The notes: a model not told the origin generated them from the sequence alone. A DNA stretch of 64,000 nt from an uncultured Alphaproteobacteria bacterium (GCA_963775315.1 CAVZIN010000007.1:841193-905192); one strand, 5' to 3'. Positions 1,585 through 43,286 are shown, numbered from the stretch's first letter. Translations and numbers: made by a program.

Positions 1585-1786
1585 GGCGCTTCCCCCGGTC
1601 TCGTTGGTTTTATGGCGTTCACTATAGGAGGGGCGCGAGCGCCGGTCCATGAAACGCGGCGAACGGGGCGCGGCAGCATATTGTTTATCAGTCAACAATT
1701 TGCTATCCAACGGTCCGGAGCGGTTGCCGGCCCGGTGGGCCGGCGCCAGCTCGACTCCAGGTCTGGATTTCCGCGGAAGGACCGGC

Positions 1787-2266
1787 ATGAAGACGCTGCT
1801 CACCCTCACCGTGAACGGCCGCGAGCGCACCGACGGCGTAGCGACCAGCATGCTGCTGGTGGACTACCTCCGCGAGCATCTGGGGCTGACCGGCACCAAG
1901 ATCGGTTGCGACGGCGGCGAGTGCGGCGCCTGCACCGTGCTTGTGGATGGTGAGCCGCGCCATTCCTGCCTGACCCTCGCCGCGACAATGCAGGGGCGGT
2001 CGGTCGAGACGGTGGAGCATCTGGCCCGCGACGGGCGGCTCGCCGCCATCCAGCGGGGCTTCCACGAGAAGCTCGGCGCCCAGTGCGGCTTCTGCACGCC
2101 GGGTTTCGTGATGGCGGCCGAGGGGCTCCTGCGCGAGAATCCGAACCCGAGCGAGGAAGATATTCGCGCGGGGCTCGCCTCGAACATCTGTCGCTGCACC
2201 GGCTACATCAAGATCATCGAGGCGGTGCAGGACGCCGCCCGCGAGCTGCGGGAGAGCGCGGCATGA
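1787..2266 (+). CDS. Molybdenum hydroxylase small subunit, (2Fe-2S)-binding (CoxS/XdhC-type)
   Basis: [13 protein letters not shown]..., two Cys clusters ([11 protein letters not shown] and CGFCTPG...CRCTGY), and position as first gene of an S-L-M operon. Confidence 0.9.
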
Positions 2267-2287
2267 GGTTCGCGACCCCCATCCCCG

Positions 2288-2354
2288 CCCTCCTCCTGCA
2301 AGGGGGAGGGGGCGAGCGCCGATACAACGCGTCCCTCCCCCTGCAAGGGGGAGG
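2288..2354 (+). repeat. Two tandem GC-rich stem-loops (CCCTCC(T/C)CC-TGCAA-GGGGGAGG) in the spacer between the small and large molybdenum hydroxylase subunit genes
   Basis: Copy 1 lies at 2288-2312 and copy 2 at 2332-2354. Both have the same TGCAA loop and sit in a 130-bp spacer, REP-like. Confidence 0.6.
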
Positions 2355-2396
2355 ACAGGAGGGGGTCGGCACTGGCGGGATTCGGGAGCAACTCGC

Positions 2397-4748
2397 ATGA
2401 GCACCATTCTCGAGCGCGGCGGGGCGGCCCCGGCGCCGGCCGAATCGATTGGCGTCCGGACGCCGCTGGTGGACGGGCCGGAGAAGGTCGCCGGCAAGGC
2501 GATGTACGCCGCCGACTTCGTGACCCCGGACACCCTGACCGGCCGCATCCTCCGCAGCCCGCATGCCCACGCGCGCATCCTGTCGGTCGACGTCTCGGCC
2601 GCGCGGGCGCTGTCCGGCGTGAAGGCAGTGGTGACGGGCGAGGATTGCGCCGCCAATTACGGCGTATTGCCGATCGCCATGAACGAATGGGCGCTGGCGC
2701 GCGGCAAGACCCGCTATCGCGGCGAGCCGATCGCAGCCGTCGCCGCCGTCGATGCCGAGACGGCGAACCGCGCCCTCGGCCTCATCGAGGTCGCGTACGA
2801 GGTGCTGCCCGCCTACTTCAAGGCGAAGGACGCCCGCGCCGAAGGGGCAATCCAGCTCCATGACGAGAAGCCGGGCAACATCGAGCGCGAGGTGCATTTC
2901 GAGCTCGGCGATCTCGCCAAGGGCTTCGCCGAGGCGGATTTGGTGCGCGAGGCGGAGTTCGACTGCGCCGAAGTGTGCCAGGTGCAGTCCGAACCGCACG
3001 CAGCCTTCGCCGAGTACGACGCGCTGCGCAACCGGCTGACGGTGCGCGCCTCGACCCAGGTGCCGTACTACGTGCATCTGATGCTTGCCCGCACGCTGGG
3101 CATGGACCGCTCGCGCATCCGGGTCATCAAGCCGCAGGTCGGCGGCGGGTTCGGCTGTCGCACCGAGACGCTGCAGATCGAGCTGATCGCGGCGCTGCTC
3201 GCCCGCGCGGCGAAGGGCACGGTACGCATCGTCGCCTCGCGCGAGGAGACCTTCATTACCCATCGCGGCCGGCCGGAGACGCAGAGCCGGATCAAGATCG
3301 GGCTCCGCAAGGACGGCAGGATCACCGCGGTCGAGTTCGAGACGGTGCAGCGCGGCGGGGCCTATTCGGGTTACGGCATCGTCACCATCATCTATGCCGG
3401 CTCGATGCTGTACGCGCTCTACGACATCCGGGCCGCGAAGTACGACGGCTACCGCGTGCTCACCAACACGCCGGTAAACGGTGCGTTCCGCGGCCACGGC
3501 ACGGTGAACACGCGCTTCGCCTTCGAGAATCTCTTGGACCAGATGGCGCACGAGATGGGGCTCGATCCCTTCGCCGTGCGGCGCGCGAACCTCCTGAAGG
3601 CGCCGACCGTCACCCAGAACGACATGATGGTAAACTCCTACGGATTGCCGGAGTGCCTGGACTGGGTGGAGCAGGCGTCGGGCTGGCGCGAGCGCAAGGG
3701 CAAGATGGACAAGTGGCGCGGGCTCGGCATGGCCTGCTCGCACTACATCTCCGGCGCGTCGAAGCCGAAGCACTGGACCAACGAGCCGCACGCGACCGTC
3801 AATCTCAAGCTCGATTTCGACGGGGCGGTGACGCTGCTGACCGGCGCATCTGACATCGGCCAGGGCTCGACCACCGTGCTGACCCAATGCGCCGCCGAGG
3901 TGCTCGGCATCCCGATCGACCGCATCCGCGCCGTGGTCAACGATTCCGCGCTGACGCCGAAAGACAACGGGTCCTATTCCTCGCGCGTCACCTTCATGGT
4001 GGGGAACGCCGCGATCGACGCGGCGAAGAACCTCAAGACCGTGCTGATCGAGGCCGCGGCCCGCAAGCTCGACGTGAAGCCCGAGGACGTCGAATGCCTG
4101 GGCGAGCTCTACCGCGCCGGCACGCAGGACGAGGGGCTCACCTTCGACGAGGTCGTGATGGCGGCGCTCGAGGAGACCGGAACGCTGACCGTGAAGGGCA
4201 AGTTCTCCACCATCCCCGGTAGCTGGGGCACCAAGAAATATCGTGGCGGCGCCATCGGCGGCACGATGGCCTATTCCTACGCCGCCCAGGTCGTCGAGTT
4301 GTCGGTCGACCCGGAAACCTGCGAGATCAAGGTCGAGAAGGTCTGGGTCGCGCACGATTGTGGCAAGGCGCTGAACCCCTTGTCCGTGGAAGGACAGGTG
4401 CAGGGCTCGGTGTGGATGGGGATGGGCCAGGCGCTGACCGAGGAGACGCGGTATCACCAGGGGCTCGGCATCACCAACTCGATGCTCGACTACCGCGTGC
4501 CGACCATCGTGGAATCGCCGCCGATCGAGGTGAAGATCGTCGAGGCGAACGATCCATATGGGCCATTCGGCGCCAAGGAGGCGGGCGAAGGCTCGCTCGC
4601 GGGCTTCATTCCGGCGCTGGCCGCCGCGATCGCCGACGCGACCGGCGTGCGGCCGAATGTGCTGCCGATTACGCCCGACCGGCTGATGGAAATGTTGGAG
4701 AAGCGCGAGCGGTTCGGCGGCGGCGCCGCCGACGAGGTCGAGGAGTAG
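2397..4748 (+). CDS. Molybdenum hydroxylase large subunit, molybdopterin-binding (xanthine dehydrogenase/aldehyde oxidase family; substrate unknown)
   Basis: 783 aa with typical family blocks ([10 protein letters not shown], dimerisation and MoCo domains). It lacks the CO-dehydrogenase VAYRCSFR loop, so it is a heterocycle or aldehyde hydroxylase rather than a CODH. Confidence 0.9.
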
Positions 4749-4775
4749 CGGTCGAGCGTTCGGCCCTCGTAGTTC

Positions 4776-4812
4776 GACAGGCTCACCATGATGGCCCCAC
4801 CCTGAGCCTGTC
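4776..4812 (+). repeat. Perfect 10-bp inverted repeat (GACAGGCTCA-N17-TGAGCCTGTC) in the spacer between the large and medium subunit genes
   Basis: Seen directly in the sequence; located in a 107-bp spacer. Confidence 0.55.
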
Positions 4813-4855
4813 GAAGGGCGAGGCCCGACGAAAAGAACCAGGGTTGCGGTAGAAC

Positions 4856-5830
4856 ATGGAATTCATGCCCGATTTTGCCCTTCACCGTCCCGCGACGGTG
4901 GACGAGGCGGTGAAGCTCCGCGCGGCCGAGGCGGGTTCGCGCTTCTGCGCCGGCGGCACCGACATGCTGGTGAACGTCCGGCGCGGGATCGAGAGCCCGA
5001 CGGCGCTGATCGACCTCACCGGCGTCCCCGGCCTCGGCGAGATTGCCGAGACGGACGACGGGCTCCTCATCGGCGCGGCGGTGACGCTCGACGCGCTCGC
5101 CCGCCACCCTGCGGTGCGGCGCGACTGTCCTGCCGTCGCCGAGGCGGCGGGCGAGGTCGCCGGGCCCACCCACCGGCGCTACGGCACGGTCGGCGGCAAC
5201 CTCTGCCTCGACACCCGTTGCCTGTTCTACAACCAGTCGGAATGGTGGCGGAAATCCAACGACTACTGCCTGAAGCGGAACGGCACGGTGTGCCACGTCG
5301 CGCCGGGTGGCAAGCGCTGCTTCGCGGCCTTCTCGGGCGACGTCGCGCCGGCGATGCTGGTCTCGGGCGCCGAGATCGAGATCGCGGGGCCGGCGGGCAC
5401 GCGGCGCGTCCCGCTCACGAGCCTCTACCGCAATGACGGGATGAACCACTTGACGCTTGCCCCGGGGGAGATGGTGAGCGTCGTGCATCTGCCGAAGCCG
5501 GTTACGGGCGCGCGGACAGGCTATGCCAAGGCGCGGGTGCGCGGCTCGATCGACTTTCCGCTGGCGGGCGCTGCCGTGCGGCTTCGCATGGACGGCGCCA
5601 ACGTCGCCGAGCTCGCGGTCGCGCTGACCGGCGTCAACCCATACCCGCATCTGGTCCGGGGGCTCGAGCCATTCGTCGGCAAGCCGCTCGACGACGCGGC
5701 ACTCGACCGGCTGCGCGAGACGGTGCGCCGCCAGGCGAAACCCATGCGCACCACGACGGTGAAGCCTTGGTACCGCCGCCGCGTGGTCGGCGCACTCGCC
5801 CGCAAGCTCGCGGTGCGTCTCGCGGGCTGA
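4856..5830 (+). CDS. Molybdenum hydroxylase medium subunit, FAD-binding (CoxM-type)
   Basis: 324 aa, GGTDM FAD-binding motif, CO dehydrogenase flavoprotein-like, third gene of the S-L-M operon. Confidence 0.9.
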   Translation: MEFMPDFALHRPATVDEAVKLRAAEAGSRFCAGGTDMLVNVRRGIESPTALIDLTGVPGLGEIAETDDGLLIGAAVTLDALARHPAVRRDCPAVAEAAGEVAGPTHRRYGTVGGNLCLDTRCLFYNQSEWWRKSNDYCLKRNGTVCHVAPGGKRCFAAFSGDVAPAMLVSGAEIEIAGPAGTRRVPLTSLYRNDGMNHLTLAPGEMVSVVHLPKPVTGARTGYAKARVRGSIDFPLAGAAVRLRMDGANVAELAVALTGVNPYPHLVRGLEPFVGKPLDDAALDRLRETVRRQAKPMRTTTVKPWYRRRVVGALARKLAVRLAG

Positions 5831-5858
5831 TAACATCCTCCCGACCGGGAGGGATTCC

Positions 5859-7124
5859 ATGGGCATGAACATCGCCGAGAAGATCCTGGCGCGCGCGGCC
5901 GGAACGGAGCGCGTCGTGCCGGGCGACATCGCCATCGTCGAGGTCGGTACCGCCGTCCTGATGGACATGAACTTCATGCCGGCGAGCTGGCGCGAGATCC
6001 TGAAGGTTCACGATCCGAAGCGCGTCGTCGTCGTGCTCGACCACATGGTCCCGGCGAACGAGCCGCAATCGGCCGGCGCCCACGCCAGGGCGCGCGAGTT
6101 CTGCGCCACGTTCGGCATCGAGCGGTTCCACGACGTCGGGCGCAACCAGGGCATCAGCCACGTCGTCGTCGCCGACAACGCCTACGCGCTGCCCGGCACG
6201 GTGATGGTGAACCCGGATTCGCACACCTGCGGCGGCGGCGCGTTCAACTGCGCCGCGCGCGGCGTCGGGCTGCCCGAGACGACCTTCGCCGTCACTACCG
6301 GCAAGAGCTGGTTCCGCGTCGGCGAGACGGTGCGCTACGAGCTGCACGGCAGGCTTTCGCCCGGCGTCTCGGCCAAGGACGTGTTCCTCCACATCGCGGG
6401 CAAGTACGGCGTGCACGTCAACCAGAACGTCGAGTTCGGCGGGCCGGGCATGTCATCGCTCAGCCTCAACGCGCGCCGCACCATCGCCATCATGGGCGCC
6501 GAGCTCTCGGCCGAGTTCGTGATCTTCGAGCCGGACGATGCGATGCTCGACTACGTCAAGGCGCGCAACCCGGCGCCGTTCGAGGCGACCTGGCCGGACG
6601 CGGACGCCACCTACGCCGACCGCCGGACGCTCGACCTCGCTTCGATCGAGCCGCTTGTCGCGCTGCCCGACGCGATGCTCAACAACGCGGTGCCGGTGGG
6701 CGAGGCGGCGGGCGAGCGGATCGACCAGGCCTTCATCGGCTCCTGCGCCAACGGCACGCTCGACGATTTCGCGATCGCGGCGAGGGTGCTGGCGGGTCAG
6801 CGCGTCGCGCCGGGCGTCCGGCTGATCGTCACGCCCGGATCGCAGGCGATCTATCGCGAGGCGTTAGCGAAGGGCTACGTCGCGACCATCGCCGAGGCCG
6901 GCGCGGTCGTGACGCCCGCCACCTGCGGCGCCTGCGTCGGCGGCCACATGGGCGTGCTCGGGCCGGGCGAGATATGCATCACCGCCTCGACCCGCAACTT
7001 CAAGGGCAGGATGGGCGACCCCACGGCGCGCATCTATATGGCCTCGCCGGCGACGGTCGCGGCCTCGGCTATCGCCGGGCACATCGCCAGTGCCGCCGAG
7101 TATTTCGCGGGAGATTTGTCGTGA
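5859..7124 (+). CDS. Aconitase-family hydro-lyase large subunit (LeuC/homoaconitase/maleate-hydratase-like)
   Basis: MNIAEKILARA..., aconitase catalytic-domain motifs and three conserved Cys (ICITASTRNF), short LeuC type of 421 aa. Confidence 0.85.
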   Translation: MGMNIAEKILARAAGTERVVPGDIAIVEVGTAVLMDMNFMPASWREILKVHDPKRVVVVLDHMVPANEPQSAGAHARAREFCATFGIERFHDVGRNQGISHVVVADNAYALPGTVMVNPDSHTCGGGAFNCAARGVGLPETTFAVTTGKSWFRVGETVRYELHGRLSPGVSAKDVFLHIAGKYGVHVNQNVEFGGPGMSSLSLNARRTIAIMGAELSAEFVIFEPDDAMLDYVKARNPAPFEATWPDADATYADRRTLDLASIEPLVALPDAMLNNAVPVGEAAGERIDQAFIGSCANGTLDDFAIAARVLAGQRVAPGVRLIVTPGSQAIYREALAKGYVATIAEAGAVVTPATCGACVGGHMGVLGPGEICITASTRNFKGRMGDPTARIYMASPATVAASAIAGHIASAAEYFAGDLS

Positions 7125-7618
7125 TCGGCGCTCGCCTCTGGAAGTTCGGCGACGACATCAACACCGACCTCCTGCTGCCCGGCTCGGCGATGATGAAGCC
7201 GGAGCCGGAGCAGGCGCGCGCCGTGTTCGCCGCCAACCGGCCGGGCTGGGTGGACGAGATGAAGCCGGGCGACGCGCTGGTCGCCGGGCGCAATTTTGGC
7301 ATGGGCTCGAATCGTCCGGCCTCGCGCTCGCTCCGTAATCTGGGGGTCGCCTTCCTGCTCGCGGAATCGATCAACGGGCTCTTCTTCCGCAACAGCGTGA
7401 ACTACGGCCTCGTCGCGCTCGAATGCCCGGGCTGCTATGCGGCGTTCGAGGAGGGCGACATGGCCGAGCTCGACCTCGCGGCCTGGACGGTGCGCAACGC
7501 GCGCACCGGCGCGGTGCTGACGCCCGACCCGATTCCGGAGCGGCTGCTGACCCTGATGCAGGGCGGCGGCATCTACCCGCTGATGGAGCGCGAGGGGCTG
7601 GTCGCCCCGCGCCGTTGA
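7120..7618 (+). CDS. Aconitase-family hydro-lyase small subunit (LeuD-like swivel domain)
   Basis: The GTG start overlaps the stop of the large subunit (GTGA). Sequence IGARLWKFGDDINTDLLLPG... is a classic LeuD N-terminus; 166 aa. Confidence 0.85.
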
Positions 7619-7637: not shown

Positions 7638-7859
7638 CTACGCCCGCGGGATCAGGTGGAGCATCATCAGCTCGTCGGGGGTGAGGGAACGGCGCGCGCC
7701 GTCCCCCGGATAGACCTCCCACGCGTCGCGCTCGACGGTCTGCCAATCGAACCCGACGATCAGGGCGAGAGCGATGCGCGCCAGCGTCCGCCTCAGCCCC
7801 GCCTCGCGCGCGGGCGCGACGTAGCCCGGCGGGTCGTAGCGCTTCAGCACCCCGCTCAT
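7638..7859 (-). CDS. Small hypothetical protein (73 aa) co-transcribed downstream of the Rieske oxygenase pair
   Basis: ATGA start/stop overlap with the upstream Rieske gene, strong GC3 codon bias, and it fills the convergent gap. No recognisable domain. Confidence 0.4.
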   Translation of the reverse strand: MSGVLKRYDPPGYVAPAREAGLRRTLARIALALIVGFDWQTVERDAWEVYPGDGARRSLTPDELMMLHLIPRA

Positions 7860-8881
7860 GACGCAAGCCTCGATTCGGGCTCGCCCTCGGCGGCGAGCAG
7901 GTCCTGGAGCATGCGGCGCATGCGCAGCCCCGGCGCGTCGCTCATCATGTGGAACTCCAGCGGATCCTTGTTGTCGAGCGGCACGTCGAATTCGGTCGAC
8001 TCCAGGATCTCCTTGTCTTCCAGCGTGACCTGCCGGTCGAAGGCGATGATGTCGGCGGCCTTCGCCTCTTCCTCGGTGTCGCTGCGGTAGCAGAACTGGA
8101 CCACCATCGCGCGGTCGTCGGCCATCGGCGTCGCCGCGGTGATGATGGTGTGCTGGAGCCCGTGCGGATAGGTGATGCCCAGCCGGCGCACGAACGGCAT
8201 GTACCACGTGGAGTGGTTCTTCCGCACCGTCTCCTCGGAATTCGCCCCGCCGAGATATTTCTGCGAGACGGCGCCGCGGTTCATGACCTTGTGCTCGGCG
8301 AAGATGTGGAAGCCATAGTCGAACGGCTCGATCTCCACTTTGGCGGGTACCGGCTGCCGGTCGTTGCCGAAACTTGCGCGGTGGGTGAAGGCGATGTGCG
8401 CGGCGTCGAACGAGTTCTCCATCAGCCGCAGCGGCGCGATCTTCCACTCCTCGTAGAACTGGTCGATGCGCCGCAGCCCGTCGGTCTCGTCCGGGAAGTC
8501 CGGAAGCGGGGCCAGCGGCTCGTCGAGCGCGACCCACACATGGCCGTAACGGACCGCCGTGCGGTAGGAGGGCACGCGGAGCTCCGCCGGCACCTTTTTC
8601 GGATCGGGCTGCTGCGGGATGGTGACGCAGCGTCCGGTGCCGTCGTACTGCCAGCCGTGATAACCGCAGGTGGCGAGCCCTTCGGCGAGATAGCCCTTGG
8701 AGATTTTCGCCGTGCGATGACAGCACCGGTCACGGATGCAGGCGACCGAGCCGTCGGCTTCGCGCCACAGCACGATGTTCTCGCCCAGCAGGGTGAACGG
8801 CACCAGCCCGGCGTCGAGATGGCCTTCGCGGAGCACCGGGTACCAGAAGCGCCGCAGGCTCTTTTGCATCGTGGTCAGCAT
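7856..8881 (-). CDS. Alpha-only Rieske non-heme iron oxygenase (NdmA/NdmB-like N-demethylase/hydroxylase family)
   Basis: Rieske ligands CCHRTAKIS...CGYHGWQY, mononuclear Fe motif ENSFDAAHIAFTH, an N-terminal RRFWYPV block resembling NdmA RHFWHPV, and an ATG at 8881 with an AAAGGA RBS. Confidence 0.85.
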   Translation of the reverse strand: MLTTMQKSLRRFWYPVLREGHLDAGLVPFTLLGENIVLWREADGSVACIRDRCCHRTAKISKGYLAEGLATCGYHGWQYDGTGRCVTIPQQPDPKKVPAELRVPSYRTAVRYGHVWVALDEPLAPLPDFPDETDGLRRIDQFYEEWKIAPLRLMENSFDAAHIAFTHRASFGNDRQPVPAKVEIEPFDYGFHIFAEHKVMNRGAVSQKYLGGANSEETVRKNHSTWYMPFVRRLGITYPHGLQHTIITAATPMADDRAMVVQFCYRSDTEEEAKAADIIAFDRQVTLEDKEILESTEFDVPLDNKDPLEFHMMSDAPGLRMRRMLQDLLAAEGEPESRLAS

Positions 8882-8897
8882 CACTCGGTCCTTTCGT

Positions 8898-9950
8898 TCA
8901 GGCCGCAGCCGTCGTGTCGCGTTCGTCGGGTGTGCCGGTCGTGCGCGCCTCGCGCTCGCCGTGCGCCGCAAGCAGCTTCATCAGCCGCTTGCGCATTTCG
9001 AGACCGGGCCGGTCGGACCACATGTGCAGCTCCTCGCGGCGGCGCAGATCGAGTGGCACGTCCCAGTCGCACGCCTCCAGGATGGCGCGGTCCTCGTGCG
9101 TCACCTGGCGGTCGAAGGCGATGACACCCTCGGCCGGCGCGTCCGCCTCGGTGTCGTTGCGCACCGCGAACTGGGTCAGGATCGAGCGGCGGTCGTCGAT
9201 CGGCGCGGTCAGGGTGATCAGGATGTGTACGAGCCCGTTCGGGTAGGTGATCTTCATCTTGCGGCTGAACGGCATCCACCACGTCTTTTCGTAGTTGCGG
9301 ACCGTCCGGTCGCCGGATTCGCGCAGGTTTCGCTTCTGGATGTCCGGGTTCTGCACCGGCACGATGGTCCGCATGACGAACCCGTCATCCGTGTCGGTGA
9401 TGCTCATCGGCTGCGGCTCGGGCTCCTCGATGATCCCGAACGACGCGCGGTGAACGAAGGAGAAGTGCGCGTTGTCGAATGAGTTCTCCATGATGCGGAG
9501 GCCTGGCGCATCCCACTCCTCCCAGAACTCGTGAAACTGCCGGAAGCCGGTCATGGCGGCCTCGGGCAGCGCCGGAATGTCGTACAGCGGTTCCTCCAGG
9601 GCGACCCAGACATAGCCGTAGCGCTCGGCGCAGTGGTAAGACTTGACCCGGGCGCCCGAGGGCACCGCGCCGTTCCGCGCCTGGGGCACCTTCACGCACA
9701 GCCCGTCCGGGCGGTAGGTCCAGCCGTGATAGCCGCAGACGATGTTCCCGTCTTCGCACCAGCCGTGGCTCAGCTTGGCGGTGCGGTGGCAGCAGCGGTC
9801 GGCCACGGCGGCGGGCGCGCCGTCCGGCCCATTCCACAGCACGATGTCCTCGCCCAGCAGGCGGAACGGCCGCGGCGCGTCGCCAAGCTCTGACATTGGC
9901 ATCAGCGCGTACCAGAACCGGCGAAAAACGGGCTGCTGCGTCACGAGCAT
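8898..9950 (-). CDS. Alpha-only Rieske non-heme iron oxygenase, paralog 2 (NdmA/NdmB-like)
   Basis: CCHRTAKLSHG...CGYHGWTY and ENSFDNAHFSFVH motifs, AGGAGG RBS before the ATG at 9950, and a sigma-54 promoter about 40 bp upstream. Confidence 0.85.
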   Translation of the reverse strand: MLVTQQPVFRRFWYALMPMSELGDAPRPFRLLGEDIVLWNGPDGAPAAVADRCCHRTAKLSHGWCEDGNIVCGYHGWTYRPDGLCVKVPQARNGAVPSGARVKSYHCAERYGYVWVALEEPLYDIPALPEAAMTGFRQFHEFWEEWDAPGLRIMENSFDNAHFSFVHRASFGIIEEPEPQPMSITDTDDGFVMRTIVPVQNPDIQKRNLRESGDRTVRNYEKTWWMPFSRKMKITYPNGLVHILITLTAPIDDRRSILTQFAVRNDTEADAPAEGVIAFDRQVTHEDRAILEACDWDVPLDLRRREELHMWSDRPGLEMRKRLMKLLAAHGEREARTTGTPDERDTTAAA

Positions 9951-9989: not shown

Positions 9990-10006
9990 TTGCAAGTTCC
10001 GTGCCA
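9990..10006 (-). promoter_or_regulatory. Sigma-54 (RpoN) promoter for the Rieske oxygenase operon
   Basis: Minus strand reads TGGCACGGAACTTGCAA, a GG-N10-GC match to TGGCACG-N4-TTGCW, about 40 nt upstream of the start at 9950. Confidence 0.7.
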
Positions 10007-10060: not shown

Positions 10061-10984
10061 CTAGCCCGTGGGCAGCGCTGCCCGAAACGGATGCGTCCGC
10101 ATCCAATGTCGTGCGACGTCGACGCGGCGCGCGATCCATACGTCGCGATGGCCGAGTACGTGATCGAGGAAGCGCTCGACACCGGCGGCGCGCGCGGCAT
10201 GGCCGCTGACCCGGAGGTGGAGCGAGAGGGTCATCGCCCGCGGCCGCCGCGCCGACTCCCGGTACAGGACGTCGAACGCATCGGTCATGTAGGTGACGAA
10301 GTCGCTGGACGTGGCGAACCAGCCGCGGCCGTACTTGTTGTCGTTGTGACTGAAGGTGTGGGGCAGGACCAGGAACGGCTTGCCGCGATCGGTCGTCCAG
10401 AACGGCAGGTCGTCGGCGTAGGAGTTGCAGTCGTAGAGGAAGCCGCCCTCTTCGATCAGCAGCCGTCGGGTGTTGAGCGACGGCCCGTAGCGGCAATACC
10501 AGCCGAGGGGCCGTTCACCCATTGTGCGGGTGAGCGAGGCGACGGCGCCGACGATGTGGTCGCGCTCCGCCGCCTCGTCCATGTTGAACTGCTCGACCCA
10601 GCGCCAGCCGTGGCAGAGCACTTCCCACCCCGCCTCTCGGATCGCCTGGGCAGCGTCGGGATTGCGCTCGAGGGCGAGCGCCGCACCGCTTACCGTCACG
10701 GGCAAGTCGCGCTCACGGAACAGATCGTGCAGCCGCCAGAATCCGACCCGGCTTCCGTATTCGAACAGGGACTCGGCGGCGAGGTCGCGCCCCTTGACGC
10801 CGAGGTCCGGGGCGCCGGCGTCGGTCATCGTGGCCTCCGACCTGCCGTCGCCGTCGGGCACCGAGTACTCCGACCCCTCCTCGTAATTCAGCACCAGGTT
10901 GAACGCCATGCGGGCGCCGTTGGGCCAGCACGGGTCGGGCGGATTGCGCCCGTACCCGACCATGTCGCGCGGATAGTCGGTCAT
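10061..10984 (-). CDS. Divergent PuuE-type allantoinase / polysaccharide deacetylase-family cyclic-ureide hydrolase
   Basis: MTDYPRDMVGYGRNPPDP...NYEEG...FEYGSRVGFWRL resembles PuuE, but the active-site region differs from the canonical copy at 23390. ATGA overlap with the allA stop. Confidence 0.8.
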   Translation of the reverse strand: MTDYPRDMVGYGRNPPDPCWPNGARMAFNLVLNYEEGSEYSVPDGDGRSEATMTDAGAPDLGVKGRDLAAESLFEYGSRVGFWRLHDLFRERDLPVTVSGAALALERNPDAAQAIREAGWEVLCHGWRWVEQFNMDEAAERDHIVGAVASLTRTMGERPLGWYCRYGPSLNTRRLLIEEGGFLYDCNSYADDLPFWTTDRGKPFLVLPHTFSHNDNKYGRGWFATSSDFVTYMTDAFDVLYRESARRPRAMTLSLHLRVSGHAARAAGVERFLDHVLGHRDVWIARRVDVARHWMRTHPFRAALPTG

Positions 10985-11481
10985 GCGGCGATTTCCACGC
11001 GGAGCCCCAGCCGCCCTTTCAGGGCCGCCGACTGGTGGTCGGTCCGGTTGGTGTCGGCGAGCTCGAGATTGAGGAAGTCCATGCAGGGCGCACGGAAATA
11101 AGGGCCCGCATGCCAGGTGCCGCAGTGGAGCTTCACGATGGCGGGTCCGACGATGGTGAAGGCGCGGAGCGTGCCGGGTTCGGGCAGCGCCTGTGGGTCG
11201 TCGAACGCCGCGGGTGGCGCCACCGCGAGGAACCATTCGAGCCCGAGGGCCGATCCCAGGCACTGCGTCACCTTCCGGTGTCGCGCCAGTGCCTCGAAGG
11301 CCAACCCGTGGTCGGGCACGCGCATGATGTAGAGCCGCGGCGTGCCGCCGAATTCCAGCCGCGCGTCCTCCGGACCGAACGGCGTGCCGTAGCCGGAGGG
11401 CGCGATCAGCTCGCCGAATGGCGCAAACGCGGCGGCGGTGATCGGCTCGGGCCGGAGGCGGATCAGGCGAGGTTCGATCAT
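10981..11481 (-). CDS. allA: Ureidoglycolate lyase (AllA family)
   Basis: 166 aa with the AllA-family PFG motif (EPITAAAFAPFGELI), consistent size and ureide-pathway context. Confidence 0.8.
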   Translation of the reverse strand: MIEPRLIRLRPEPITAAAFAPFGELIAPSGYGTPFGPEDARLEFGGTPRLYIMRVPDHGLAFEALARHRKVTQCLGSALGLEWFLAVAPPAAFDDPQALPEPGTLRAFTIVGPAIVKLHCGTWHAGPYFRAPCMDFLNLELADTNRTDHQSAALKGRLGLRVEIAA

Positions 11482-12734
11482 GACACGCGGTCCTTTGCGC
11501 GTGCCATGGCGAGGGGTGTGTCGGTATAGAGGCGGCGCAGCTTCGCCCGGTGGTCAGGCCCGTCCCGTCCGGCCGTCGCGCGCACCGGATCGGCGCCTTG
11601 CAGCAACGGCGCGCTCGCATCCCACGAGAAGCGGCTGACGAAGGCGATACGCTCGGCGCGGGCGGCCTCGAACGCGGCGGTGAAGGCGGGGGCGTCGAAC
11701 CTGTGGGCCGCCGCCTCCGCGAAGGACGTGAGGAGCGCGCACCCGTCCTCGATCGCCTGGGTCGCGCCCTGGCCGAGCGTGGGCGCCATGGCATGGCTGG
11801 CGTCGCCGAGGAACAGCACATGGCCGCTTGTGTCGCGGTAGGCGGCGTCGATTTCCTGCGCGCGCGACCAGTGCAGCGGGCCCTCGCACCGGGCCAGCGC
11901 GTCGATCAGCCACGCGCAGCTCGGATCGGGAGCGCCGGCGTGGGGGCGGTAGGCGGCGCAGAGACGGTTCCGGTCGGCGCAGCCTTCCGGCACCTCGCCA
12001 TTCGCGTCGGTCGGCAGGTTGCCGGACAGGTAGACCACCCCGTCCGCCAGACGGAAGGCGAGCAGGCGGTTCGGCCCGGTGTAGAACTGCTCGAGATCGT
12101 CGATCCCGCTCGCGTCGGCGTCGGGCAGCAGCAGCCGGAAGTTGGCGACGCCGAGGAAGCGGGTCGCCGGAGTGCCGAGAAGCCGCTCGCGGAGGGGCGA
12201 GTAGCGCCCGTCGGCGGCGATCAGCAGGTCGATCCCTTCAATCCGCTTGCGCGCGCCGGTCACGTCGTCGATCAGGGTGAAGGAGATCGCCCCGCGTCGG
12301 CGCCCGGGCGTGATGGCGACGTCCTCGATGCGGGCGCGGAACCGCGCGAGCCGGCGCAGCGGCGCGCGGATGGCACGATAGAGCTCCGACCAGCGGATAC
12401 GGATGCCGTCCGTTTCCGCAACCTCTTCAAGCGGGATGAAATAGAGCAGGCGCCCGCCCGAGAGCGCGGCGCGCCATTGCCGCCATGGCAGGCTCGCCGC
12501 CTGCAGGTCCCGCGCGAGGGCGGGGAGGGTCGCCGCCAGAGCGCCCATCGCATTCGGTCCGACATTCAGCCCGTTGCCGGCATGGTCGTGGTCGTCCGGC
12601 CCGACCTTTTCGACCGCGATCAGCTCGACGTCCGGCCGTCCGGCGAGTCCTGCCGCGACCACGCCGCCGGCGACGCCGAGGCCGATCACGGCGACGCGCA
12701 GCGGCAGGCGCGCATTCACGCTGGCATTCGGCAT
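11478..12734 (-). CDS. FAD-dependent monooxygenase (HpxO/TmuM-like urate-type hydroxylase candidate)
   Basis: N-terminal GxGxxG (RVAVIGLGVAGG), DG and GD(A/S)xH flavin monooxygenase motifs, operon with allA and puuE-like, sigma-54 promoter upstream. Confidence 0.8.
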   Translation of the reverse strand: MPNASVNARLPLRVAVIGLGVAGGVVAAGLAGRPDVELIAVEKVGPDDHDHAGNGLNVGPNAMGALAATLPALARDLQAASLPWRQWRAALSGGRLLYFIPLEEVAETDGIRIRWSELYRAIRAPLRRLARFRARIEDVAITPGRRRGAISFTLIDDVTGARKRIEGIDLLIAADGRYSPLRERLLGTPATRFLGVANFRLLLPDADASGIDDLEQFYTGPNRLLAFRLADGVVYLSGNLPTDANGEVPEGCADRNRLCAAYRPHAGAPDPSCAWLIDALARCEGPLHWSRAQEIDAAYRDTSGHVLFLGDASHAMAPTLGQGATQAIEDGCALLTSFAEAAAHRFDAPAFTAAFEAARAERIAFVSRFSWDASAPLLQGADPVRATAGRDGPDHRAKLRRLYTDTPLAMARAKDRVS

Positions 12735-12768: not shown

Positions 12769-12784
12769 TGCAAATTCCGTGCCA
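12769..12784 (-). promoter_or_regulatory. Sigma-54 promoter for the FAD monooxygenase-allA-puuE-like operon
   Basis: Minus strand reads TGGCACGGAATTTGCA, about 35 nt upstream of the start at 12734. Confidence 0.7.
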
Positions 12785-12912: not shown

Positions 12913-12930
12913 TTGGCACGATTCTTGCGA
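12913..12930 (+). promoter_or_regulatory. Sigma-54 promoter for the isochorismatase-cupin-CocE operon
   Basis: TGGCACGATTCTTGCGA. The 22-mer GGTTGGCACGATTCTTGCGAGG is identical to the promoter at 20156-20177 on the opposite strand. Confidence 0.75.
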
Positions 12931-12940
12931 GGTGTGCCGC

Positions 12941-13720
12941 ATGGATGCTCGCGAAGATACGAAGCGATCGTTGGGCACGGCGCCCGCGAACCGCTGGCGG
13001 GTGGACGCGGCGGAAGTCGATCTCGTCCGGGCCCAGCCGGTGCCTCGCCCGGTGCGGATCGCCGCGACGCCGCAGAACCTGACGCTCGACCTTGCGCGCA
13101 CGGCGATCCTGGTGATCGACATGCAGAACGATTTCTGCCACCCGGACGGGTGGCTTGCCTCGATCGGCGTCGACGTGTCGCCGCTGCGCGCCCCGATCGC
13201 CCCGCTCGCGGGGCTCCTGCCGGCACTGCGCCAGGCCGGGGTGCCGGTGGTGTGGGTCAATTGGGGCAACCGGCCGGACCGGCTCAACCTCAGCCCGTCC
13301 TTGCTGCACGTCTACAAGCCGACCGGCGAGGGCGTCGGGCTCGGCGATACTCTGGTCAGCGGTGCGCACGTTCTTCAGAAGGGAAGCTGGTCGGCCGCCA
13401 TCGTCGACGACCTCGCGCAAGAGCCCGTCGACATCCATGTCGACAAGTACCGGATGAGTGGATTTTGGGACACGCCGCTCGATTCCATCCTACGCAATCT
13501 AGGAGTGGCGACCTTGCTGTTCGCCGGCGTCAATGCCGACCAGTGCGTACTCTGCTCGCTTCAGGACGCGAACTTCCTGGGACACGATTGTGTCCTCCTC
13601 GAAGACTGCACCGGGACGAGCTCGCCGAAGTTCTGCTTGGAGGCGACGCTCTACAATGTGCGCCAGTGCTTCGGCTTCGTCGCGGGGTCCGGGGCCTTGG
13701 TCGCGGCGTTGGCAAGATGA
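12941..13720 (+). CDS. Isochorismatase-family cysteine hydrolase (RutB / N-carbamoylsarcosine amidase / maleamate amidase-like)
   Basis: LVIDMQNDFCHPDGW and a C-terminal block YRMSGFWDTPLDSILRNLGV...GVNADQCVL close to RutB. GAGGTG RBS and a sigma-54 promoter 10-30 bp upstream. Confidence 0.85.
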   Translation: MDAREDTKRSLGTAPANRWRVDAAEVDLVRAQPVPRPVRIAATPQNLTLDLARTAILVIDMQNDFCHPDGWLASIGVDVSPLRAPIAPLAGLLPALRQAGVPVVWVNWGNRPDRLNLSPSLLHVYKPTGEGVGLGDTLVSGAHVLQKGSWSAAIVDDLAQEPVDIHVDKYRMSGFWDTPLDSILRNLGVATLLFAGVNADQCVLCSLQDANFLGHDCVLLEDCTGTSSPKFCLEATLYNVRQCFGFVAGSGALVAALAR

Positions 13721-14160
13721 AGGCGATCCTCAAGCATCCCGGCGAGCTGCGCGCGTTTCGCATCAGCCCGGGCGACACCAACTACCTCGCCTGCGTGTTC
13801 GACCCGGTCGAGCACGGCGAGGTCGGCTTCACCGCGGTGATCGAAATCTTCGAGCAGGGCGGGAAGACGCCGCCCAATACCCACCGCGCGGCGCACGAGA
13901 TGTTCCTGGTGCTGGAGGGCGAGGGGATCGCGACCTGCGACGGCCGCGCCGAGAAGGTACGGACGGGCGATGTGCTGTTGGTCCGGCCCGGCGCCGAACA
14001 CGTGGTCGAGAACACCGGGCCGGGGCGGCTCTACTGCTTCACCGTCATGGTGCCGGACGAGGAATTCGCGGCGCTGATCCGGGGCGGCATCCCGGTCGCG
14101 CTAGACGCCGCCGACCTCGCCGTCATCACCCGCGCACCGGGCTTCGCGCCGCATGGCTGA
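13717..14160 (+). CDS. Cupin-domain protein
   Basis: 147 aa single cupin (G(X)5HxH-like THRAAHEMFLVLEGEG ... PGAEH) with ATGA coupling to the upstream gene. Confidence 0.7.
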   Translation: MKAILKHPGELRAFRISPGDTNYLACVFDPVEHGEVGFTAVIEIFEQGGKTPPNTHRAAHEMFLVLEGEGIATCDGRAEKVRTGDVLLVRPGAEHVVENTGPGRLYCFTVMVPDEEFAALIRGGIPVALDAADLAVITRAPGFAPHG

Positions 14161-15820
14161 CGGGAGTCCGGAAATTGTCTCCATGCGCACCCGCGACGGG
14201 GTGCGGCTTGACGCGGACGTCTATTTCCCGCCGGCGACACTGAAGGGCCCGCACCCGGTATTGATGATGCGCCAGCCCTATGGACGGCGCATTGCCTCGA
14301 CCGTGACCTTTGCCCACCCGTCCTGGTACGCGGCACACGGCTATATCGTGGTGATCCAGGACGTGCGCGGGCGCGGGACGTCGGAGGGCGTGTGGCGGGC
14401 CTTCGAGAACGAGGCGGCGGACGGGGCCGACGCGGTGCGCTGGGCTGCCACGCTGCCGGGGGTGAGCGGGGCCGTCGGCATGTACGGCTTTTCCTACCAG
14501 GGCGCGACGCAGCTCCTTGCTGCGGGCGGGCTCGCCGCGGAGGACGGAACGACCGGCGCGCTCAAGGCCATAGCCCCGGCGATGACCGGGTGGCGCATTC
14601 ACGACGACTGGGCCTATGAGGGTGGAGCGTTCGCGCTGGCCGCCAACGTGTCGTGGGGCCTCCAGACGGCCGCGGAGACCGCGCGGCTCGCCAGGGACGA
14701 GGAAGCGTTCGTGGCACTCGCCCGCGCCGCCGCCGCGCCGCCGCTGCGGGACGCCATTCCGGCGGTCCCGGACATATTGCGGCGCTACGCCAGCTACGCC
14801 CACTACATGGAGTGGGTGGGCAATCCCGGCAACGGCCCCTACTGGGACCGCATCGCGCCGGCCGCGCAGATGGGGCGCGCCGACCTTCCGGCGCTGCACG
14901 TCGGCGGCTGGTACGATTCGTTCCTCGCCGGCACGCTCGCCGCCTATCGCGAGCTCTCGGCGCGGGCTCGAAGCCCGCAGCATCTTGTCGTCGGCCCTTG
15001 GACCCATCTCGACTGGACGGGGCGGCATTCCGCCTACGACGCCGGCCCGGCGGGCGCAAACACGATCGACGCGCTGCAGCTCCGCTGGTTCGACCATTGG
15101 TTGAAGGGCGCGGCGAACTGGGACGCGGTCGAACGGCCGGTGCAGCTTTTCGACATGGGTGCCAACGTGTGGCGCGGGTTCGAGAGGTGGGACGCGGCGC
15201 CGTCGCACGCGCTGCACTTGGCGAGCGATGGGCGAGCGGCGCTGATGCCGTGCGCCGGCCGGCTCACGGACGTGGCGGGACCGCCCGGCGCGAACGTGGT
15301 GGTGCTCGACCCATGGCGACCGCCGCCGAGCCATGGCGGCCATGCGGCCCCGCCGGTCGGGCGGGTCGACCGCGCCGCCATCGACGACCGGCCCGACGTC
15401 TGCGCCTACACGACGGAGCCGCTCTCCGGGCCGCTGCGCCTCGCCGGGGCCGTCGCGGCGGAGCTCTGGGTGCAGGCCGACCAGTCGAGCTTCGATGTCT
15501 CCGCCGTGCTATCGGAGCTCCGCCCCGACGGCAAGGTGGTGAATTTGACCCAGGGCTATCGCCGCGTGGCGCCCGGCGAAGGGGCAGCGCCGCTCCGCGT
15601 CGAGATGCGCGGCACGGCGGCGACGATCCCGGCCGGAACCGCGCTCCGCCTCTCGCTCGCGCCGTCCTGCTTTCCGGCCTTCCCGGTGAACGGGGGCGAC
15701 GGCGCGCCGCCCGCGGTCGCACGGCGAATCGACCAGCGGATCGTGACGCTCACCATTCGCCACGGGTCCGGCACACCGTCGCGCCTGCTGCTCCCGATCG
15801 TCGCTGAGGGGTCCGCGTGA
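14153..15820 (+). CDS. CocE/NonD-family hydrolase (X-Pro dipeptidyl-peptidase S15-like alpha/beta hydrolase)
   Basis: 555 aa with the GxSYxG nucleophile elbow (MYGFSYQG) and a C-terminal beta-sandwich domain. Confidence 0.8.
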   Translation: MADGSPEIVSMRTRDGVRLDADVYFPPATLKGPHPVLMMRQPYGRRIASTVTFAHPSWYAAHGYIVVIQDVRGRGTSEGVWRAFENEAADGADAVRWAATLPGVSGAVGMYGFSYQGATQLLAAGGLAAEDGTTGALKAIAPAMTGWRIHDDWAYEGGAFALAANVSWGLQTAAETARLARDEEAFVALARAAAAPPLRDAIPAVPDILRRYASYAHYMEWVGNPGNGPYWDRIAPAAQMGRADLPALHVGGWYDSFLAGTLAAYRELSARARSPQHLVVGPWTHLDWTGRHSAYDAGPAGANTIDALQLRWFDHWLKGAANWDAVERPVQLFDMGANVWRGFERWDAAPSHALHLASDGRAALMPCAGRLTDVAGPPGANVVVLDPWRPPPSHGGHAAPPVGRVDRAAIDDRPDVCAYTTEPLSGPLRLAGAVAAELWVQADQSSFDVSAVLSELRPDGKVVNLTQGYRRVAPGEGAAPLRVEMRGTAATIPAGTALRLSLAPSCFPAFPVNGGDGAPPAVARRIDQRIVTLTIRHGSGTPSRLLLPIVAEGSA

Positions 15821-15823
15821 ACG

Positions 15824-17203
15824 TTATGCGAGCGGGGCGAAGGTGCGCATCTTGCCGGGGTTGAGAAGCCCGTAGGGGTCTGCGGTCAGCTTGAACCCAT
15901 GCTGGTCGCCGGCGATCTGCTTGTGCCGCGTACCGTCCTCCAGCGTGTAGACGTGCGGGTTGGCGATCATCGCGCCATGGGATTCGTGGTAGGCGATGAT
16001 CTCGTTCAGCCGCTTCTCGGTGGTGAAGCGCACCAGGGGCAGACCGGAGCAGGTGAGCTCGCCGGCATACTTGATGATCTCGAGGTGCATCGGGAGTTCG
16101 TCGCCGAACTTGGCGCGCATGTGCTGCACGGTCTCGAGCGCCCGGCCGGCCGGGTAGAGGATCTGCAAATAGGTCACCGACTTGTCCACCTTGAGCGCGT
16201 GCAGGGTGGTGTGGTTCCAGGTGTATTCGTAGAGCGGCGGGTAGGCGGCGCGGTCCTCGGTCGCGATGGAATCCTCGTCGTAGGTGAGCGTTCCGCGGTG
16301 CTCCTCGATCAGGTCGGCAAGAGCGACCATCGATCCCTCGGCAATCATGCAGATCACAATGTGCTTGCCCTCGGGCAGGATCGTGTTGAGGCGCGGAAAG
16401 TATTTCGGGATCGGCCAGGCGACAGGAGTCACCAGCTTCTTCACGATGCCGTCGGCCGCGCCGAGCGCGAAGGCGAAGAGACCGGCGTCGAGGAAATCGT
16501 CGAACGCCACCACCACGTCTCGCCACGGCCAGAGCGGCGTCAGCGGCATCTCGATCTCGGTGATGATCCCGGTCGTCCCGTACGCGTGGTTGACTACGTT
16601 GGCGGCCTTGCCCTTGAGGTCGAGGACGCGTGGTTCCGCCTCCGCCGTCACGACGCGGGCCCCGATCACGTTGCCCGGCTCGCGCAGCCCGCCGAACGTG
16701 ACCGAGCCGATGCCGCCGGAGCCGCCGGCCACGAACCCGCCGATGGTCGCGGTTCTCTTGGTCGAGGGATACATGCGCTGCTCCCAGCCGAACCGGCGGG
16801 TCTGGTGGTCGAGCTCGAGCATGTACTTGCCCGGACCGACGCGGACGCGGCCCGGTGAAATCTCGCGCACCTCGTTCATCTCGATCATGTCGAGCAGCAC
16901 GCCGCCGGAGAGCGGCACGGCTTGGCCGTAATTCCCGGTGCCGCCACCGCGTGCGGTGACCGGCACGCGGTGGCGCACGGCGGCGCGCATCACCGTCACC
17001 ACGTCAGCTTCCGAGCGGGGCGTGACGACGATCTCCGCGAGGCGGGTTTCGAGCTGAGGCTTCAGGATCGGACTGTACCAGAAGAAGTCGTGCGACTTCT
17101 TGCGGATATGGCGGGCGTCGCGCGTGTGCGGCACCGACCCGAGATCATCGAGGAAGGCGTCGAGGGCCCGCGAGGGCGGCGCGGCGGCGGCGAGGCGGCT
17201 CAT
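15824..17203 (-). CDS. FAD-linked oxidase (PCMH-type FAD-binding oxidoreductase)
   Basis: 459 aa, FAD-binding_4 motifs (ARGGGTGNYG...), and last gene of the creatininase operon. Confidence 0.85.
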   Translation of the reverse strand: MSRLAAAAPPSRALDAFLDDLGSVPHTRDARHIRKKSHDFFWYSPILKPQLETRLAEIVVTPRSEADVVTVMRAAVRHRVPVTARGGGTGNYGQAVPLSGGVLLDMIEMNEVREISPGRVRVGPGKYMLELDHQTRRFGWEQRMYPSTKRTATIGGFVAGGSGGIGSVTFGGLREPGNVIGARVVTAEAEPRVLDLKGKAANVVNHAYGTTGIITEIEMPLTPLWPWRDVVVAFDDFLDAGLFAFALGAADGIVKKLVTPVAWPIPKYFPRLNTILPEGKHIVICMIAEGSMVALADLIEEHRGTLTYDEDSIATEDRAAYPPLYEYTWNHTTLHALKVDKSVTYLQILYPAGRALETVQHMRAKFGDELPMHLEIIKYAGELTCSGLPLVRFTTEKRLNEIIAYHESHGAMIANPHVYTLEDGTRHKQIAGDQHGFKLTADPYGLLNPGKMRTFAPLA

Positions 17204-20157: not shown

Positions 20158-20177
20158 TCGCAAGAATCGTGCCAACC
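20158..20177 (-). promoter_or_regulatory. Sigma-54 promoter for the creatininase-ABC ATPase-deaminase-FAD oxidase operon
   Basis: Minus strand reads GGTTGGCACGATTCTTGCGA, about 30 nt upstream of the start at 20128. Confidence 0.75.
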
Positions 20178-20314: not shown

Positions 20315-20331
20315 TGGCACGGTTCTTGCGA
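20315..20331 (+). promoter_or_regulatory. Sigma-54 promoter for the Rieske-less oxygenase paralog
   Basis: TGGCACGGTTCTTGCGA, 30 nt upstream of the ATG at 20361. Confidence 0.7.
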
Positions 20332-21325: not shown

Positions 21326-21341
21326 TGGCACGAATCTTGCA
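21326..21341 (+). promoter_or_regulatory. Sigma-54 promoter for the SBP-permease-puuE-allC-uraD-puuD operon
   Basis: TGGCACGAATCTTGCA, about 47 nt upstream of the ATG at 21388. Confidence 0.7.
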
Positions 21342-22449: not shown

Positions 22450-22456
22450 GAGAGTG

Positions 22457-25599: not shown

Positions 25600-25701
25600 G
25601 GCCGGTTCTCCGCGCGCCAGGGCAGCGATTTCCACGCATTTCCGGTCGCCCATGCTTGGCACGCCGCTTGCAAGGCGAGGGACGGGACAAGGCGTGAGGC
25701 G

Positions 25702-43210: not shown

Positions 43211-43286
43211 TGGCTCCGCGGGAGGGACTCGAACCCCCGACCCGGCGGTTAACAGCCGCCTGCTCTACCAGCTGAGCTACCGCGGA
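43211..43286 (-). tRNA. tRNA-Asn (anticodon GTT)
   Basis: The reverse complement folds as a 76-nt cloverleaf with a 7-bp acceptor stem, anticodon loop CTGTTAA and 3' CCA. Confidence 0.85.

Follow-up and report, generated by a model that had tools for sequence, protein, structure and literature searches.

The RF03054 riboswitch (NMT1 motif), as described by Yu and Breaker (2020, PMC7373994), is an OFF switch that binds xanthine and urate selectively and rejects most related compounds. In the same account, the motif is associated with genes for Rieske and 2-oxoglutarate (2OG) dioxygenases, with NMT1/tauA genes and with PDR and amidohydrolase genes. The riboswitch-linked dioxygenases, noted there in 2020, are likened to HpxDE of Klebsiella, a molybdenum cofactor (Moco)-independent hypoxanthine/xanthine hydroxylase (de la Riva et al., 2008, as cited in PMC7373994), and the text drawn on here states that their functions are not established. 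No biochemical characterisation of these oxygenases after 2020 was found in the literature searched. The present work concerns a stretch of 64,000 nucleotides from an uncultured Alphaproteobacteria bacterium (GCA_963775315.1, CAVZIN010000007.1:841193-905192), referred to below as the window, and in particular two adjacent genes for Rieske oxygenases, named here Rieske2 and Rieske1, the 73-aa open reading frame (ORF) that follows them (orf73) and a third paralog that lacks the Rieske cluster. An earlier note, made from the sequence alone, had described the pair as NdmA/NdmB-like and placed it on a route of methylxanthine demethylation. The results presented below place the pair in the riboswitch-associated family. 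It appears moderately probable that these enzymes monooxygenate an imported purine-type heterocycle in nitrogen scavenging, ring hydroxylation being the likeliest reaction, and that their reductase is encoded elsewhere.

The tandem Rieske oxygenases

Both genes lie on the minus strand. Rieske2 (8898-9950) is the first gene of the pair and encodes a protein of 350 aa, and Rieske1 (7856-8881; 341 aa) starts 16 nt after it, with an AAAGGA ribosome-binding site in the short gap. The Pfam Rieske and VanA_C domains were detected in both proteins (4e-20 and 5e-22, respectively, in Rieske2) and the two sequences share 49% identity, which bears out the view of the earlier note that they are paralogous alpha-only Rieske oxygenases. 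The CxH...CxxH ligands of the Rieske cluster and the 2-His-1-Asp iron site all align in Rieske1 and Rieske2, although this ligand set is common to the whole superfamily and does not discriminate Ndm membership. Rieske2 keeps 75 of the 76 columns conserved in the family, and the AlphaFold model of this protein has a pLDDT of 89.8. Rieske1 is more divergent (70/76), and its C-terminus is under strong purifying selection, with dN/dS of 0.04-0.08. Both proteins are alpha-only Rieske monooxygenases of the VanA type and presumably trimeric.

Family membership and association with a riboswitch and an importer

More than 3000 homologs of the pair were found, and the best 120 of them, which share 55-78% identity with it, carry generic names only. 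In representative genomes, 539 relatives were distributed over Alpha-, Beta- and Gammaproteobacteria and Cyanobacteria; they include proteins of Reyranella and Enhydrobacter (63-64% identity), Herbaspirillum, Ramlibacter, Cupriavidus, Alcanivorax, Pseudomonas hunanensis, Stutzerimonas and many filamentous cyanobacteria. A neighbour-joining tree was built from 105 family sequences together with NdmA, NdmB and SxtDIOX. The three window proteins fell inside the family, whereas NdmA and NdmB formed a separate long branch. Of the gene pairs of Reyranella, the first copies grouped with Rieske2 and the second copies with the Rieske-less protein, which was on a long branch; Rieske1 belonged to another subclade of the family. 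Adjacent tandem Rieske pairs are present in 18 loci, and their copies form separate clades within lineages, which fits two successive oxidations.

The surroundings of the family were analysed in a set of 82 related loci (individual loci are cited by L numbers), in which neighbours were counted within 10 kb. The RF03054 riboswitch was detected in seven of the seven beta- and gammaproteobacterial loci tested, 1.3-2.4 kb upstream and on the same strand, with scores of 43-59 bits against a gathering threshold of 36. Its core motif, sought with a regular expression, occurs in 25/82 loci, all of them apparently beta- or gammaproteobacterial, and in L049, L067 and L068 the riboswitch lies directly 5' of the Rieske gene. 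Such loci typically begin with the riboswitch; the gene for the NMT1 binding protein comes next and then one or two Rieske genes, with genes for an ABC ATPase, a permease, a PRK12393 amidohydrolase and a PDR-type reductase downstream. Identities between the window proteins and those of RF03054-bearing loci are 51-64%, and both belong to the same clade. In the window itself no RF03054 element was found at the gathering threshold, none at E<=5 over 7-40 kb, and none with the regular expression for the core motif.

No other neighbours accompany the family as often as the genes of the NMT1 importer: an ATPase is present in 55 loci, a permease in 50 and the NMT1 binding protein in 47. Less frequent companions are FAD_binding_4 proteins (21 loci), creatininase (18), 2OG oxygenase (17), CD-type amidohydrolase and isochorismatase (14 each), cupin (12) and CocE/NonD hydrolase (10), and PuuE, OHCU decarboxylase and PuuD were each found in 5-8 loci. 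A PDR reductase was encountered in only 10 of the 82 loci; therefore, the absence of a reductase within 10 kb is the rule for this family and not a peculiarity of the window. The link to purine and urate metabolism that the earlier note had proposed is strongly supported, by the riboswitch of the relatives as well as by the gene context.

Sigma-54 promoters and the island that they delimit

The Rieske pair is preceded by a sigma-54 -24/-12 element, TGGCACGGAACTTGC (9992-10006, minus strand), which is an exact match to the consensus and lies 41 nt upstream of the Rieske2 ATG (9950). The promoter proposed by the earlier note is thus confirmed, and an AGGAGG ribosome-binding site follows it ahead of Rieske2. 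The exact pattern TGGCAC-N5-TTGC occurs seven times in the window, against 0.11 matches expected from shuffles. All seven matches are intergenic, are located just 5' of operons and fall between 9.9 and 26 kb; the first genes behind them encode Rieske2, an FAD monooxygenase, an isochorismatase, a creatininase, the Rieske-less paralog, an NMT1 binding protein and an OHCU decarboxylase. A copy with one mismatch lies 5' of a second NMT1 binding-protein gene. The seven exact matches and the near one, each 5' of an operon, delimit an island of about 21 kb (window 9992-30951). Because exact promoters precede both the pair and the neighbouring operons, the pair is one unit of a sigma-54 regulon. No gene for a sigma-54 enhancer-binding activator was found in the window, and a search for repeats common to its sigma-54 promoter regions returned only the promoters themselves.

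The same type of promoter accompanies the riboswitch in the relatives. In at least 19 riboswitch loci, TGGCA[CT]-N5-TTGC starts 28-30 nt 5' of the riboswitch core; beta- and gammaproteobacterial examples are L026 (7605-7683), L034 (6518-6604), L062 (8604-8700) and L067 (8782-8855), and there are at least 15 further loci. Since the sigma-54 element directly precedes the riboswitch, expression of the family's operons seems to depend on sigma-54 and to be repressed through feedback by xanthine or urate. The portions of Yu and Breaker (2020, PMC7373994) that are drawn on here do not mention a sigma-54 element ahead of the riboswitch. In the window, control by sigma-54 is kept and control by the riboswitch is lacking.

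In three metagenomic contigs related to the window (L083-L085; see below), the intergenic DNA ahead of the NMT1 binding-protein gene contains a conserved motif, GCGGGCGATTGACTTCCGA, which precedes the sigma-54 promoter of this gene by about 75-85 nt (L083 ~640-660, L084 ~637-657, L085 ~445-465). This motif could be a binding site for an activator. It was searched for in the window and is absent there.

Comparison with NdmA/B and SxtT/GxtA

The four NdmA-like motifs listed in the earlier note are all present and align to NdmA as it had described. Moreover, NdmA is the best match of Rieske2 among the sequences of the Protein Data Bank (PDB), over the full length and with an E-value of 4.5e-34, followed by SxtDIOX (7e-33), SxtT and NdmB. 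For Rieske1 the order is SxtDIOX (7e-29), SxtT and NdmA. When the model of Rieske2 was compared with solved structures by Foldseek, GxtA and SxtT gave the closest matches (E ~1e-26, TM 0.80-0.83), and NdmA came after them (~2e-24, TM 0.79). The identity of Rieske2 to NdmA is about 27-28%, a tie with SxtT/GxtA (~27%). As all these identities are near 27%, C-H hydroxylases and N-demethylases are at the same distance from the pair. The enzymes with the nearest solved structures, SxtT/GxtA and NdmA/B, are all monooxygenases whose substrates have purine-like scaffolds. An affinity to the glycine betaine and carnitine oxygenases, which the earlier note had named as the outcome that would speak against its reading, was not found; GbcA, CntA and Stc2 were rejected as relatives, with remote PDB E-values of 1e-4 to 1e-6 compared with 1e-34 for NdmA.

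The substrate pocket was compared by means of the residues that contact caffeine in NdmA, namely F168, F174, F223, L248, N282 (Q in NdmB), V285 and F286 (L in NdmB) (bioRxiv 10.1101/2021.12.17.472166). The positions were mapped after removal of the 18-residue tag offset of the PDB chain. The position of F168 is occupied by Ser in 86 of the 105 family sequences, with Glu and Ala also occurring, that of N282 by Asp in 105/105, and that of F286 by Thr in 82/105. The F223 position is variable. Phe is retained at the F174 position in 70/105 sequences, the L248 position holds Ile or Leu and the V285 position Val or Ile, so that three of the seven contacts are conserved in kind. The pocket of the family is more polar than that of NdmA and contains an invariant Asp. 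The cofactor motifs are closer to those of NdmA than to those of SxtT; since the contact residues are largely replaced, the resemblance to NdmA lies in these motifs and not in the substrate pocket.

These comparisons bear directly on the route favoured by the earlier note, in which Rieske1, Rieske2 and the Rieske-less protein would be NdmA/B/C-like N-demethylases of methylxanthines or other N-methylpurines (e.g., 7-methylguanine after deamination), and the xanthine formed would enter urate degradation. The rank of NdmA in the PDB search and the cofactor motifs speak for it, and so does the end product of the Ndm pathway, xanthine, which is a ligand of the riboswitch. Moreover, two or three paralogs recall position-specific demethylases, and the sub-threshold set of FAD monooxygenase, PuuE-like and AllA-like proteins, being paralogous, could process substituted ureides. 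On the other side, the low identity is shared with the hydroxylases SxtT/GxtA, NdmA and NdmB stand outside the family clade, only three of the seven caffeine contacts are kept, with Ser in place of the pi-stacking F168 and an invariant Asp in place of N282, the selectivity residue, and the family is far more widespread than the known caffeine degraders. In addition, neither an NdmD-type Rieske reductase nor an NdmE-type glutathione S-transferase (GST) nor a gene for the detoxification of formaldehyde was detected in the window, and the Rieske-less copy is a singleton deletion variant. Of the NdmA/B reading, the placement in the NdmA/SxtT corner of the VanA-type oxygenases therefore stands, while membership in the Ndm clade, four of the seven caffeine contacts and the partners NdmD and NdmE do not. 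A methylxanthine specificity is not supported, given the identity of ~27-28%, the changes F168 to Ser, N282 to Asp and F286 to Thr, and the position of NdmA/B outside the clade. N-demethylation of some N-methylpurine is a minority reading, and we judge it distinctly unlikely.

The Rieske-less paralog

The third paralog (20361-21239, plus strand; 292 aa, VanA_C 3.8e-22) lies behind its own sigma-54 element (20315-20329), has a strong ribosome-binding site and is 48% identical to Rieske2. A clean in-frame deletion of 52 aa removes exactly the CxH...CxxH region with all four cluster ligands, in agreement with its description as Rieske-less in the earlier note, and the His/His/Asp iron ligands are retained. 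Outside the deletion 56 of the 61 conserved columns are kept, which is comparable with the 70/76 of Rieske1. The window protein is the only one of the 105 family sequences analysed that lacks the ligands, and its cluster at 90% identity has a single member. The A/B/C-like triad suggested earlier does not hold, as the Rieske-less copy is the sole ligand-less sequence among the 105 and neither NdmD nor NdmE is present. For the same reasons, an NdmC-like conserved lineage of cluster-less proteins was rejected. Judged by its sequence, the paralog may be either a recent loss-of-cluster variant that works in mixed trimers or a young pseudogene. If active, it would take electrons from an adjoining subunit that bears a cluster.

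Neighbouring genes and the nature of the substrate

Upstream of the pair and on the same strand lies an operon (10061-12734, minus) with its own sigma-54 element at 12770-12784. It encodes a group A FAD monooxygenase (11478-12734), a ureidoglycolate-lyase-like (AllA-like) protein (10981-11481) and a PuuE-family deacetylase (10061-10984), all of which score below the NCBIfam cut-offs (HpxO, 58 bits against 500, for the first and PuuE, 356 against 425, for the last). The same trio is found near a Rieske gene in L033. This sub-cut-off set next to the Rieske pair may handle a urate analogue. Further along, an operon on the plus strand (12941-15820; sigma-54 element at 12914-12928) encodes a RutB/BiuH-like isochorismatase hydrolase (RutB 2.6e-37), a cupin and a CocE/NonD hydrolase. 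It is followed by an operon on the minus strand (15824-20128; sigma-54 element at 20160-20174), in which the first gene encodes a creatininase-family protein (19295-20128) and the others an ABC ATPase (18513-19304), a PRK07583-type 'cytosine deaminase' amidohydrolase (17200-18516; 589 bits, cut-off 403) and an FAD_binding_4 dehydrogenase (15824-17203). The latter has a very close solved homolog, the 'FAD/FMN-containing dehydrogenase' of PDB 6v42/6v43 (E 8.6e-136); no paper on these entries was found in the literature.

Directly after the Rieske-less paralog, the plus strand encodes an NMT1/THI5-like substrate-binding protein (21388-22449; Pfam NMT1; sigma-54 element at 21326-21340) and an ABC permease (22454-23377; Pfam BPD_transp_1). 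Next come a second PuuE-family deacetylase, an M20 hydrolase, an OHCU decarboxylase and a PuuD-type urate oxidase (23390-27449, plus strand; assigned with Pfam), with a sigma-54 element at 25657-25671 ahead of the OHCU decarboxylase gene. After PuuD, another M20 hydrolase, a pcbC-like 2OG oxygenase and the second NMT1 binding protein (~30996-32027) are encoded. Between the latter two, a thiamine-diphosphate enzyme is split into genes for an N-terminal and a C-terminal subunit (29726-30843, plus strand). Ureide-type enzymes are duplicated in the window, which holds two PuuE-family deacetylases and an HpxO-like FAD monooxygenase alongside the PuuD urate oxidase. With PuuD, the OHCU decarboxylase, the two PuuE-family proteins and the M20 hydrolases nearby, the purine-ureide setting described by the earlier note is evident. 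The island is predicted to encode an importer, hydrolases of the deaminase and cyclic-amide types and enzymes leading from urate to ureidoglycolate.

Pfam scans of essentially all substantial ORFs of the window revealed no reductase of the FNR/PDR type, no free ferredoxin, no oxygenase beta subunit and no GST, and a tblastn search with the PDR-type reductase linked to the family gave no match in the window. The earlier statement that a reductase, ferredoxin or GST partner is missing from the window is hence correct.

On the other side of the pair, the region 616-7618 is without sigma-54 motifs and encodes an Amidohydro_2 protein, a trimer of small, large and medium subunits similar to the Mo-hydroxylase XDH (1649-5830) and the large and small subunits of an aconitase-like protein. 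This composition suggests another N-heterocycle pathway. Two tRNA genes (43214-43286 and 43351-43421, minus strand) mark the end of the catabolic region. Elsewhere, valyl-tRNA synthetase is split between two ORFs (46693-48315 and 48056-49360, plus strand) that overlap and differ in frame, a pattern that points to a frameshift or an assembly error.

The companion genes can also be taken to mean that the substrate is not a purine. It would then be another N-heterocycle (pyrimidine, hydantoin, creatinine-like or pterin-like), degraded by the co-conserved hydrolases (RutB-like isochorismatase, CocE/NonD, creatininase-family and cytosine-deaminase-type), the cupin and FAD_binding_4 dehydrogenases, and the purine link would be regulatory or coincidental. 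These genes accompany the Rieske family in 10-21 loci of different classes, and none of their products has a place in the canonical purine pathway; furthermore, the isochorismatase has RutB as its best solved match, and the amidohydrolase passes the PRK07583 'cytosine deaminase' cut-off. However, the riboswitch over family members is described as selective for xanthine and urate (PMC7373994), and urate genes co-occur in 5-7 loci as well as in the window. Moreover, minimal beta- and gammaproteobacterial operons do without the hydrolase set and comprise only the binding protein, the Rieske gene or genes, ABC components, a PRK12393 amidohydrolase related to 8-oxoguanine deaminase and the PDR reductase. 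Nothing useful was found in the literature that links Rieske proteins with creatininase and isochorismatase or with 8-oxoguanine deaminase. A non-purine substrate seems unlikely.

The small protein orf73

The third gene behind the sigma-54 promoter of the pair, orf73 (7638-7859, minus strand; 73 aa), overlaps the stop codon of Rieske1 with its ATG by 4 nt (ATGA). The GC contents of its three codon positions are 0.73, 0.50 and 0.95, and the GC3-biased, ATGA-coupled ORF of the earlier note is therefore real. Three homologs with 67-73% identity, all with the same ATGA overlap, were found among 5.8 billion proteins. A profile search of 1.84 billion representatives returned only the cluster of orf73 itself and two weak multi-stretch matches to far longer proteins, and no match was obtained in Pfam or NCBIfam. 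The three metagenomic contigs L083-L085 carry, in this order, a Rieske1 ortholog, the ATGA overlap, orf73, a sigma-54 promoter and an NMT1 binding protein. In none of 80 other related loci is orf73 encoded; with four closely related sequences in all, it does not qualify as a partner of the family. A role as ferredoxin or iron-sulfur carrier was ruled out, the protein having no cysteine.

It could be argued that orf73 is non-functional and represents the end of an ORF that arose by chance in an alternative frame (7638-8726), as is common in DNA of 70% G+C. Indeed, it prolongs a 362-aa out-of-frame ORF that overlaps Rieske1, its homologs are confined to four close relatives, its nucleotide identity (80-83%) is only slightly above that of neighbouring intergenic DNA (69-77%), and its AlphaFold model is a long helix of low confidence (pLDDT 67). 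However, the start, the ATGA overlap, the length and the stop are conserved across lineages separated by dS of 0.4-0.8, and the N- and C-terminal peptide blocks are invariant. At this distance dN/dS is 0.26-0.56, compared with 0.04-0.08 for the adjoining C-terminus of Rieske1, and differences are commonest at the third codon position; the codon-position composition (GC3 0.95, GC2 0.50) points in the same direction. A chance ORF is therefore considered rather unlikely, and on the pattern of its codons orf73 is read as a probably genuine, weakly constrained, fast-evolving and lineage-restricted small protein.

Discussion

The mechanism that we propose, with moderate confidence, for the riboswitch-associated pair is ring hydroxylation of an imported purine-type heterocycle. 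Under nitrogen limitation the heterocycle would be taken up by the importer encoded in the sigma-54 island, and each paralog would perform one monooxygenation on it. The likeliest chemistry would be hydroxylation of a ring C-H to give xanthine, urate or a hydroxylated intermediate, analogous to HpxDE as this enzyme is portrayed in PMC7373994. The products may then enter the adjoining ureide pathway with release of ammonia, and a PDR/VanB-type flavin-[2Fe-2S] reductase, encoded beyond the window, would supply the electrons.

Several observations weigh against this proposal. The copy in the window has no riboswitch, and no biochemical assay of any family member was found in the literature searched. 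With the Mo-hydroxylase trimer (1649-5830) and PuuD in the window, there is no obvious need for a Moco-independent xanthine hydroxylase. The isochorismatase, cupin, CocE/NonD, creatininase and FAD_binding_4 companions belong to no known purine route. The sub-cut-off equivalog scores of the FAD monooxygenase and of the PuuE-like and AllA-like proteins hint at a urate analogue and not at urate. The analogy to HpxD is drawn from a statement in the literature. A protein of a Paraburkholderia replicon labelled hpxD is only 31% identical to Rieske2, and this label looks like an automatic transfer (DFAST); used as a query, it retrieved a different family of Paraburkholderia, cyanobacterial and Bacillus proteins and no Klebsiella entry.

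A more far-reaching scheme can be drawn, in which the family would be a Mo-independent system of purine C-H hydroxylases, widespread among Proteobacteria and Cyanobacteria. Its tandem paralogs would act at different ring positions (e.g., C2 and C8) under sigma-54 ON and riboswitch OFF control, the cluster-less paralog would function in mixed trimers by using the Rieske cluster of an adjoining subunit, and orf73 would be a modulator of the complex. In this full form the scheme is improbable.

What the present analysis adds to the association noted in 2020 (Yu and Breaker, 2020, PMC7373994) is that the riboswitch-linked oxygenases all belong to a single large clade near NdmA/B and SxtT/GxtA, that they often occur in tandem pairs and that their operons are usually driven by sigma-54. 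If they are purine hydroxylases, they would constitute a common O2-dependent alternative to xanthine dehydrogenase for nitrogen scavenging, which would explain why cells need an RNA for feedback by xanthine or urate. The companion set of hydrolases could mark an undescribed route of ring degradation. For annotation, the labels 'NdmA' or 'vanillate demethylase' are unsafe on genes of this family.

Among the characterised systems, NdmA and NdmB of Pseudomonas putida CBB5 (6ICK, 6ICL) resemble the window enzymes in the alpha-only Rieske and VanA_C fold, the ligands, the occurrence as paralog pairs and the purine scaffold. They differ in forming a separate clade and in their caffeine contacts, which are largely replaced in the window proteins; NdmD and NdmE have no counterpart in the window, and the family is distributed far more widely than caffeine degraders. 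Like the Rieske-less paralog, NdmC (NdmCDE complex) is a catalytic-domain protein without a Rieske cluster, but the window copy arose from a 52-aa internal deletion in one lineage. SxtT and GxtA (6WN3, 6WNC) are the top structural matches, SxtDIOX is the top sequence match of Rieske1, and these enzymes hydroxylate a perhydropurine scaffold; they are cyanobacterial biosynthetic enzymes with ~27% identity to the window proteins and an unrelated gene context. HpxDE, compared through its description in the literature only, likewise involves a Rieske oxygenase and a reductase in the assimilation of purine nitrogen, beside genes of the HpxO and PuuE types, while an HpxE-like reductase is missing from the window. 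A tandem oxygenase pair is not known for HpxDE. Compared with the riboswitch-associated Rieske dioxygenases, the window relies on sigma-54 only, without a riboswitch, and has an additional Rieske-less paralog and the lineage-specific orf73; it shares with them the clade, the adjoining NMT1-type binding proteins and ABC importers, the amidohydrolases and the pcbC-like 2OG oxygenases.

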